Source: Octopus sinensis
Lineage: Eukaryota
Length of the DNA stretch: 57,941 bases
Direction of reading: 5' to 3'
Assembly (NCBI RefSeq): GCF_006345805.1
Contig: NW_021833619.1
Location: 1 to 57,941 of the forward strand
Shown here: in pieces, positions 3,282 through 52,927 of the stretch
Numbering within the stretch: the stretch's first letter is position 1
Layout of the letters: every line of letters starts with the position of its first letter
Translations under genes and position numbers: made by a program
Notes under the pieces: generated by a model
The model's database searches: none
Seen by the model: the letters and a program-made list of their open reading frames with translations, nothing else
What the model was told of the DNA's origin: nothing

Positions 3282-3610
3282 AGCAAGTCGGAACGATATT
3301 TTCACGAGGCATTTCCGACCCCGCCTCGGCAATATCTGACCTAAAATTTTCAATCATCGCAACTCGCGCCAAATTTATCGGCAGCAAATAAATATAAGCC
3401 GCCGATTCCATTACGGAATTACCAGAAAATTCACAATTAATCAATATAATGAATTTGAATTTTCTGGTTAATTCCGTAATGGAATCGGCGGCTTATATTT
3501 ATTTGCTGCCGATAAATTTGGCGCGAGTGCGATGATTTGAAATTTTTAGGTCAGATATTGCCGAGGCAGGGTCGGAAATGCCTCGTGAAAATATCTGTTC
3601 CGACTTGGCT

Positions 3611-3715
3611 ATTTCTTACTGATGATTCTAAGTGCCTATGGAAGATTGCTTGATTTAATTTAATCAGGTTATTTGCCATTAAACAGTAGATGAAACGGTG
3701 CATCGTATAAGAAAT
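3611..3715 (+). ncRNA. Type I hammerhead ribozyme motif with long stem II insertion
   Basis: Stem I atttctta/taagaaat (8 bp), CTGATGA 3619-3625, stem II tcta/taga, GAAA 3692-3695, near-palindromic stem III cggtgcatcg, GUA cleavage triplet ending at 3707. Confidence 0.8.
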
Positions 3716-4091
3716 TACAGGGTAAATGTTTTTTAATTTTCTCCTGGTTTACGGAATTGATGTTTATTTGCGGTTGAAGCTTTGGCTGTTATTTCTAGTG
3801 GGTGAATGGCCTATTATGGCCGTTCCTTGATTGTGATGTTGAACTTAAAAATGGTCTATGACTATTTAATTTTTCCCACTAGGCCGCTGGTGGCAAAAAA
3901 ATTCTACAAAATTTTTGCAACCCTATATTGATTAATTATGATTTTCTGGTTAATTCCGTAATGGAATCGGCGGCTTATATTTATTTGCTGCCGATAAATT
4001 TGGCGCGAGTGCGATGATTTAAAATTTTAGGTCAGATATTGCCGAGGCAGGGTCGGAAATGCCTCGTGAAAATATCTGTTCCGACTTGGCT

Positions 4092-4198
4092 ATTTCTTAC
4101 TGATGATTCTAAGGGCCTATGGAAGATTGGCTTGATTTAATTTAATCAGGTTAGTTTACCATTAAACAGTAGATGAAACGGTGCATCGTATAAGAAAT
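4092..4198 (+). ncRNA. Type I hammerhead ribozyme motif (tandem copy)
   Basis: Same motif; predicted cleavage after 4190. Confidence 0.8.
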
Positions 4199-4317
4199 TA
4201 CAGGGTAAATGTTTTTTAATTTTCTCCTGGTTTACGGAATTGATGTTATTTGCGGTTGAAGCTTTGGCTGTTATTTCTAGTGGGTGAATGGCCTATTATG
4301 GCCGTTCCTTGATTGTG

Positions 4318-19042: not shown

Positions 19043-19400
19043 CACATTTTAAAAAACTGACCACTAAAAGTGGACGGTCAACATGCTAGATATAGACGTC
19101 AAAATCGCTATTTTCCACGAAGAACGTGTTCTCAAATAAATAGGTAATCGTGCTTATTTCGTAAATTTTCATTTGTCTTGTTTATTTTTAACACTTTGGT
19201 TTGTGCTGAGTTTTTATTTCAGAACACATTCTTCGTGGAAAATAGCGATTTTGACGTCTATATCTAGCATGCTGACCGTCCACTTTTAGTGGTCAGTCCT
19301 TTAAATTTTGTATGTAAAATATTTTAATCTTCGGATTTTTTAATATGCTAGGCCACTGGTTTTAATTGATTAATATCAATTTCTACCCTTATTCAATTTT
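19037..19400. repeat. Inverted repeat (arms 19037-19140 and 19213-19316) in a (TA)n-flanked element related to the 3' domain of the 3-kb unit
   Basis: Near-perfect reverse complement arms; shares the ctag...ctaggccRctggt...accct architecture. Confidence 0.8.
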
Positions 19401-51904: not shown

Positions 51905-52927
51905 ACGTCGTCGCCGTCGTCGTCGTCATTGTTATCACTAGCAACATCATCATGATCATCATGATCATCATCCTCGTGGTCGACGTCGTCATCATCATCA
52001 TCATCATCATTATCGTGGTCGTCGTCGTCATCATCATCATCATCATCATCATTATCGTGGTCGTCGTCGTCGTCATCATCATCATCATCATCATTATCGT
52101 GGTCGTCGTCGTCGTCATCATCATCATCATCATCATTATCGTGGTCGTCGTCGTCGTCATCATCATCATCATCATCATCATCGTCATCGTCATCATCATC
52201 ATCATCATCATCATCATCTCATCGTCGTCATCCTCGTAGTCTTGTTCATCATCATCATCATCACCGCCATCGTCATCGCAATCATAATCATCATCACCAT
52301 CGTCGTTGTCGTCTTCGTCTTAATCATGATCATCGTCATCATCCTCATCAACACCACCAACACCACCACCACCACCACCACCACCACCATTATCATCATC
52401 ATTGTCATCATTCTTCTCATAATCATCATAGTCGTTGTCGTTGTCATAATCATCATCATCATCATCACCACCACCACCACCACCTCCACCACCACCACGA
52501 CTATCATCGTTTTTCTCACTATCATCATCATCATCATCATCGTCGTTGTCATTATCATCATCATCATTATCATCATCATCATCATCATCCCCATCGTCAA
52601 CATCAGCAGCGGTAGCTGCCTCCTCAGCAATTCCTGCCTCATCATAATTAACATCACCAGCATCATCATTACTATCAGTAACATTATCAGTGTTACCAAC
52701 TTCAACATCAGCATTTAAATTCTTCCCCATCTTCCTCATCCCCATCTTCCTCATCCTCATCACCACCATCACAAACATCATCGCTCTCTCCCACTCGTTA
52801 ACATTTTTACTATTATCATCGCATTCATCCATAATCACCCGTTTTAATCTCCATCATCATTATGGCTATTCACATCATCACCAACATTATTATCTCTATA
52901 ATCTTCACACTCACCTTAATCATCATC

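Follow-up and report, generated by a model that had tools for sequence, protein, structure and literature searches.

A conserved RNA domain at the 3' end of hammerhead retrozymes in the genome of Octopus sinensis probably serves as the docking site for a borrowed RT-endonuclease and sets the two start points, S1 and S2, for twin priming at (TA)n. RT docking is the most likely role of the domain because the elements end at S1 or S2, because the two kinds of end are paired one each per insertion, and because 9 of 46 elements have arms that were not copied from each other. The domain has a covarying fold, the elements terminate at two sites, the sites obey an S1 + S2 pairing rule, and the two arms of an insertion were independently templated.

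RESULTS

The family A insertion

The whole stretch of DNA that was analyzed, 57,941 nucleotides long and here called the window, is microsatellite-rich animal DNA from an assembly of 2.72 Gb. A head-to-head retrozyme insertion of the family that we designate A lies within (TA)n at 2952−4319 (both strands), as delimited by sequence, motif scan, and genome comparison. Its inverted arm (2952−3448) has its outer end at S2, and its direct arm (3449−4319), consisting of 1.8 units of 487 bp, has its outer end at S1. Sequence inspection and a motif scan placed a type I hammerhead motif in the unit at 3612−3714 on the plus strand, with stem I TTTCTTA/TAAGAAA, the core CTGATGA at 3619, a long stem II, GAAA at 3692−3695, and a near-palindromic stem III at 3696−3705; cleavage is predicted after A3707. 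Additional copies were found by motif scan near 4093−4197 (plus strand) and 3176−3280 (minus strand). The hammerhead at 3612−3714 had no Rfam match, and in the MFE structure of the lone hammerhead stretch the active monomer form was not reached, which is neutral for a dimer-type motif.

The conserved 3' domain of family A occupies 3781−3938 on the plus strand. A long-range helix, P1 (3794−3802/3875−3883), encloses the hairpins P2 (3804−3811/3818−3825) and P4 (3853−3856/3860−3863), and is followed by a 5-nt linker (3884−3888) and the terminal hairpin P5 (3889−3922). The inner terminus and putative RT start, S1, is at 3835−3837 and is realized in the copy ending at 4317−4319; the outer terminus and putative second RT start, S2, is at 3934−3938 and is realized near 2952, at the left end of the insertion. 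The inverted arm carries a full domain copy on the minus strand (2949−3109; model match 118.6 bits), and a copy that S1 truncates to its 5' half was identified by sequence and model match at 4262−4319 on the plus strand. The S1 junction to (AT)n at 3837 recurs in contigs of public runs X1, X5, and X19, and the S2 junction to (TA)n at 3934 in contigs of public run X7. The domain is known from this one genome, plus near-identical sequence in public runs under four organism labels.

Fold and covariation of the 3' domain

The domain is non-coding and U-rich, is about 150 nt long with four helices, and has the conserved core CCRCTGGT...ACCCT. A first-pass annotation of the window had described P1 arms, inner hairpins, an RYYRCTGGT linker, and a terminal hairpin in copies at 3, 19, and 34 kb, each ending in ACCCT followed by (TA)n or the next unit, and all of these parts were found where it had placed them. 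Relative to shuffled sequences, the sense strands of these copies folded with z scores of −4.15, −2.72, and −3.92, respectively, and the antisense strands with −4.08, −3.27, and −4.17. Because the antisense strand folds about as well, energy alone does not choose the strand. The pattern CTAGRYYRCTGGTN{15,45}ACCCTW had 7,838 matches in the genome versus 7 for the reversed control, and a second motif pattern had 2,197 versus 32.

For analysis of covariation, 328 full-length profile hits were clustered at 92% identity into 61 variants, and 2 variants with internal deletions were left out, giving an alignment of 59. RNAalifold recovered P1, P4, and P5. With P2 added, 88.0% of 1,669 cells could pair, compared with 78.5% in shuffled alignments and 35–48% with slid partners, and both sides had changed in 19 of the 29 structure pairs. 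The compensatory changes reported in the first-pass annotation were confirmed. In a tree test, same-branch changes from one Watson-Crick pair to another numbered 16.5 across the 59 variants against a null mean of 1.1 (0/300). By helix these changes were distributed as P1 5.0 (null 0.26), P2 7.5, P5 3.0, and P4 1.0 (11/300 in the null). A stricter all-pairs test passed only 1 of 10,153 column pairs, in P2 (E < 0.02). Structure pairs took its first three ranks, and E was 2.7 for the best pair in P1. Both covariation tests used a tree and were custom scripts rather than R-scape. Changes to G-U exceeded changes to A-C on internal branches (24.6 vs. 7.0), and this excess favors the hammerhead-sense strand; they also did so on all branches (56.7 vs. 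29.9), and G-U cells outnumbered A-C cells on the sense strand (166 vs. 44). For most families the search patterns themselves imposed the linker and the 3' CTAG, and the breadth of the families rests on these patterns and the loci examined.

A covariance model built from the domain identified four full and three partial copies in the window. None of the Rfam covariance models matched the domain, in agreement with the earlier judgment that it does not resemble HDV, twister, pistol, or SECIS, and no match reached the gathering score among those listed for the window (150 of 219). Sub-threshold Rfam overlaps consisted of a snoRNA over the domain (16.7 bits, E 2.5) and one of 13.6 bits at its 3' edge; hairpin hits at 3349−3541 were rejected as arising from the inversion junction. 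A metagenome scan gave 23 pattern hits, of which the best two, L335 (35.5 bits) and L326 (26.1 bits), were rejected as pattern-forced because they lacked P2, P4, and a paired P5.

Pfam searches of 15 window ORFs and an ARAGORN search of the window produced no matches, the latter including no tRNA gene. Elsewhere in the window, a dispersed repeat of ~240 bp occurs in both orientations with 86–93% identity (12290−12535, 21865−22256, 23395−23816, 36412−36649, and 46960−47212) and is likely a SINE, and at 51945−53547 degenerate (CAT)n repeats form an array of 1.4 kb, in which a higher-order period is about 42 nt.

Related families

The copies at 19 and 34 kb represent two further families, B and C. 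The family B insertion (19037−19402) consists of an inverted arm, 19037−19140, ending at S1 and a direct arm, 19141−19402, ending at S2; its domain is at 19249−19404, with P1 at 19263−19271/19344−19352. The family C insertion (33866−34098) has the full domain on the minus strand (33866−34015), ending at S2, and an inverted arm (34032−34095) ending at S1; its P1, 34000−33993/33919−33912 on the minus strand, has one U-U mismatch. Both window copies are 5'-truncated, and longer copies of both families are tandem and hammerhead-bearing like family A (L048 and L050 for B; L073, L080, and L081 for C). The genome search returned 959, 2,302, and 1,888 first-look candidates for families A, B, and C, which are not copy numbers, and 40 were scored per family. 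Family A arrays reach nine 487-bp units. Units are ~506–538 bp in family B, ~470 bp in C, and ~597 bp in a fourth family, D; the superfamily range is 450–600 bp. Members of the superfamily insert into (TA)n, and many of the insertions are head-to-head inverted copies.

Families A through D all have the hammerhead core CTGANGA...GAAA with stem I and a palindromic stem III. Nine aligned units had in common the hammerhead and a conserved block 3' of it, with one GAGA and one CTGTTGA variant among them. Domain identity was 76% between A and C, 54% between A and B, and 52% between C and B. Because the units share both the hammerhead and the conserved block, and given these domain identities, A, B, and C are related by descent and form one superfamily. 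The earlier proposal that three divergent elements share a common domain is thus upheld as to its presence in all of them, but they are not independent cases.

Family D, which was spotted via its hammerhead, provides the best independent check on the fold. It has P2, P4, and P5 in place and a P1 formed by TTCGGTATGT/ACATGCCGAA, without CTAG (sense z −3.47, antisense −1.49). Because the fold is kept with this P1, CTAG, which the earlier layout included, is not an essential feature. In family E the layout is likewise intact, and GAT/ATC forms the base of P5; D and E, both outside the alignment, thus retain the layout with a re-written P1. Two side observations concern individual copies. One family E insertion and its flank occur twice, 5.9 kb apart (L152, 1−360 and 5934−6303), on either side of a full-length autonomous Penelope-like element (PLE), as a local duplication or an assembly feature. 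At the 5' end of a truncated domain copy (L221, 1375−1445; C1 near 27268555), a 13-nt segment of P2 is repeated head to tail about five times, which suggests repeated re-copying or slippage at the P2 hairpin.

No ORF of at least 100 aa was found inside direct units, and no PLE protein match was continuous with a unit, apart from one adjoining fragment from another family. Judged by their sequences, the A, B, and C elements would be classed as metazoan non-LTR retrozymes with a Penelope-type insertion structure. The first-pass annotation had offered two identities for the domain. The first, a conserved cis-element of these retroelements, was supported and can be sharpened: Penelope-type hammerhead retrozymes have it as their 3' domain, and both termini of the element are bracketed by it. 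That reading lacked the hammerhead at 3612−3714 and the two-terminus rule. The other, an unrecognized RNA class in the sense of a free-standing noncoding RNA or new ribozyme, was not borne out: complete insertions carry the domain inside hammerhead-bearing units, and the S1 sequence is unconserved, with a junction that shifts with TA microhomology.

Two termini, S1 and S2

Element ends abutting the microsatellite were at S1, within the P1 loop, or at S2, past P5. S2 lies ~11 nt 3' of P5 and 10−12 nt past ACCCT. S1 precedes P4 by a median of 17 nt (range 8–25; measurable in 53 of 61 junctions). With an extra upstream hairpin, the distance from the 5' CTAG to S1 grows from 44 to 61 nt, while the mean P4-S1 distance goes only from 16 to 18 nt. 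Because S1 tracks P4, the idea that it is measured from P2, mirroring P5 and S2, was dropped. The distance from S1 to the end was 74−103 nt in 61 of the 62 elements examined and 105 nt in family D. Of 61 S1 junctions, 49 had TA microhomology, which reached 13 nt in length and amounted to only 2 nt at 17 junctions, and 12 had none. The sequences at S1 and S2 vary between families and the junctions wobble with TA microhomology; in young families the termini are sharp.

Both ends could be classed in 66 of 100 head-to-head groups, giving 65 S1 + S2, 1 S2 + S2 (L087), and no S1 + S1. Removal of two duplicate rows left 63 of 64 insertions as S1 + S2. Inspection by eye of 16 of the remaining 34 rows gave 14 mixed and 2 broken, and 18 were left unclassed. 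Because the monomer queries require the tail, S1 + S1 elements could not show among monomers. The tandem class is free of this bias, and 22 of 22 were mixed (p 5e-7 at 50:50), with 15 more unclassed. Family D was searched with a query without the tail, and among its 15 loci all seven elements with both ends seen were S1 + S2.

Another hammerhead-bearing family, Q (L397, L398/L362, and L404), likewise has one short and one long end in each of these three insertions, with a tail of ~150 nt unrelated in sequence to the domain; therefore the two-end rule extends beyond elements with this domain. An ORF of its own was not found upstream of family Q in the eight stretches followed.

Inverted arms

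Inner junctions were compared in 50 elements, two of which, L017 and L027, have one junction in common. The offset between the inner arm ends exceeded 30 nt in 35 elements and was 30 nt or less, near-symmetric, in 15; the junctions comprised 28 with overlap, 5 blunt, and 17 with extra bases. In 16 of 46 elements the S1 arm extends further upstream than the S2 arm, and 9 of these 16 S1 arms are also without the tail. Being longer upstream yet tail-less, they show that in 9 of the 46 elements neither arm is a copy of the other. In 35 of 39 comparisons (A 13/13, B 15/15, C 7/11), the two arms of one element were closer to each other than arms taken from different elements were, although in family C the mean distances within and between elements were both 0.048. 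This closeness fits one source RNA or subfamily and does not of itself prove one molecule.

Search for an autonomous partner

GIY-YIG and protein searches revealed several RT-endonuclease families with a Cys linker, which are Neptune-like by the criterion given in PMC8557442. Intact RT + GIY-YIG ORFs exist in the genome, and one such family has an ordinary short tail of roughly 25–35 nt. Among the RT/GIY-YIG families examined, an incomplete sampling, none had the domain at the 3' end of an autonomous element. The RT-endonuclease partner is therefore a putative one.

Apparent PLE neighbors at L136, L221, L245, L247, L253, and L281 proved to be separate insertions. At L231 (2941−3700), a retrozyme S1 end adjoins a 5'-truncated autonomous PLE ORF fragment on the same strand with no microsatellite between them, possibly through a template switch; it was not accepted as the partner, being a single case with an ORF fragment of another family. 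Other autonomous elements were noted in passing. A very young and abundant RT + GIY-YIG family (L286−L323) has 96–100% protein identity, 16,813 first-look candidates, and open frames of 830–1,010 aa; its 3' region is rich in CT, and it has a minimal hammerhead-like motif whose core is a variant one. A Neptune-like autonomous family (L151, L152, L098, and L113) has many intact 781-aa frames and an overlapping ORF upstream; its tail is short, and TTGATAA forms the core of its hammerhead-like motif. A degenerate frame at L185 (2800−2900) looks by eye like a Naiad-type C-terminus.

DISCUSSION

Genomic comparison provides what we regard as strong evidence for asymmetric twin priming, which could proceed as follows. 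Tandem or circular retrozyme RNA would be made and then processed at the hammerhead. A Penelope-like RT-endonuclease dimer would bind the P1/P4/P5 domain and cut both strands of (TA)n. Via short TA microhomology, one target 3' end would prime at S2 (~11 nt beyond P5) and its counterpart at S1 (~17 nt before P4). The two cDNAs would stop independently and then be joined, often by microhomology, yielding a head-to-head insertion in which a single side carries the S1-S2 "tail". With 74−105 nt between S1 and S2, this Penelope "tail" is long.

Other explanations must be weighed against these data. The fold might serve RNA stability, circularization, or transport, with the termini set only by pairing of the two most TA-like stretches with nicked (TA)n. 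TA microhomology at 49 of 61 S1 junctions, up to 13 nt long, agrees with this proposal, as does the description of retrozyme circular RNAs as highly self-paired (PMC7761336). However, 12 of the 61 junctions have no microhomology and 17 only 2 nt, many further AT-rich runs in the units go unused, the S1-P4 distance is kept across families, and one end of each kind is unexplained by microhomology alone, so that we consider the proposal unlikely. We give less credence still to a role in DNA, in which an endonuclease would recognize the tail and cut a transposition intermediate at S1 or S2, the ends being resolution sites. Double-stranded DNA would not require the sense-strand excess of G-U (166) over A-C (44) cells, the arms were independently templated, and the tail ends correspond to RT start sites in PMC11167929, although PMC8557442 ascribes the tail to endonuclease-mediated resolution and earlier work, cited in PMC11167929, found that the endonuclease required the tail to recognize Penelope DNA.

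It is also very improbable that the domain is a second self-cleaving ribozyme or a nuclease site, with copying beginning from RNA 3' ends that it makes at S1 and S2. The short conserved core CCRCTGGT...ACCCT and the sharp termini of young families would suit such a site, but the S1 and S2 sequences are unconserved between families, the junctions wobble, no Rfam family matches, and a hammerhead is already present in the units. That the inverted arm forms when one cDNA or antisense template folds back and primes itself (the model of PMC3846280), or that the elements are MITE- or Helitron-like DNA transposons with hairpins acting in single-stranded DNA, seems to us hardly credible. Near-symmetric inner junctions in 15 of 50 elements are what fold-back predicts, and some junctions may still be explicable by it, but as a general route it is refuted by the 9 of 46 elements whose arms cannot be mutual copies. 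MITE- and Helitron-like elements are defined by matching terminal inverted repeats, or by a CTAG/CTRR terminus after a hairpin. CTAG plus a hairpin does resemble Helitron ends; however, the ends here differ (S1 vs. S2), the inner ends are variably truncated, the units contain a hammerhead, and CTAG is internal, ~55 nt inside the S2 end, and absent from family D, and this identity was rejected.

Twin priming from a docked RT-endonuclease therefore remains our preferred explanation. A broader proposal, which we advance tentatively and with rather less than even confidence, is that the domain represents the first conserved cis-acting RNA fold known in animal retrozymes, a template-positioning domain that presents an RT dimer with two start sites and thereby lets simultaneous twin priming make every insertion. 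If general, it would account for the head-to-head architecture and one-sided tail of PLEs and would offer a compact natural RNA handle for two-ended insertion. PLEs are the closest mobile relatives of telomerase. The origin of their inverted pLTRs and one-end tail, and the recruitment of RT by animal retrozymes, are both directly testable by mutation and rescue, for which the domain offers a defined substrate of 150 nt with covariation, two mapped termini, and a strict pairing rule.

The 3' domain is apparently undescribed, and the elements themselves are of known kind. No published account of this domain or of twin priming in PLEs was found; Repbase, Dfam, and most subscription papers were outside the scope of the search, so the families may already have entries. 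The published proposals for the origin of the PLE inverted pLTR and one-end tail are fold-back self-priming (PMC3846280) and endonuclease resolution (PMC8557442).

Like metazoan non-LTR retrozymes (PMC7229834; PMC7761336; bioRxiv 10.64898/2026.07.22.740005), the elements are low in GC, occur together with PLEs, and range from monomers to long multimers of a non-coding unit that contains a type I hammerhead whose stem III is palindromic. Unlike them, the units here are 450–600 bp, stem II is long (about 45–75 nt), there is a conserved covarying 3' domain, and the head-to-head insertions have two defined termini; metazoan retrozymes had been described as without a conserved motif pointing to a partner (PMC7761336). 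The partial tandems, adjacent inverted 5'-truncated copy, one-end extension, and (TA)n target are those of the Penelope-like pLTR and "tail" (PMC8557442; PMC3846280), and the elements thus display the three features of a non-autonomous PLE: inverted 5'-truncated copy, partial tandem, and one-end tail. They differ from PLEs in having no ORF and in the tail, which is present but, at 74−105 nt, longer than the known 30–40 bp (PMC8557442) and which makes up the 3' half of a fold with several helices. The one-S1-one-S2 rule and the independent templating of arms, both counted here, go beyond those descriptions.

A further parallel is the RT initiation region of Poseidon from Anolis (PMC11167929). 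The anole PLE protein, a predicted dimer, cuts and extends both strands in vitro, and RT starts at two internal sites, the interval between which is the tail. Two internal starts bounding a tail, an AT-rich target, extension of both strands, and an upstream hammerhead are thus common to both systems. The available text of PMC11167929 has no description of this fold, and its Figures S1B and S2C may show a related one. Compared by description rather than by sequence, the Poseidon region is an AC-rich stem-loop within an ORF, whereas the domain here is non-coding, U-rich, and four-helix and covaries across families.
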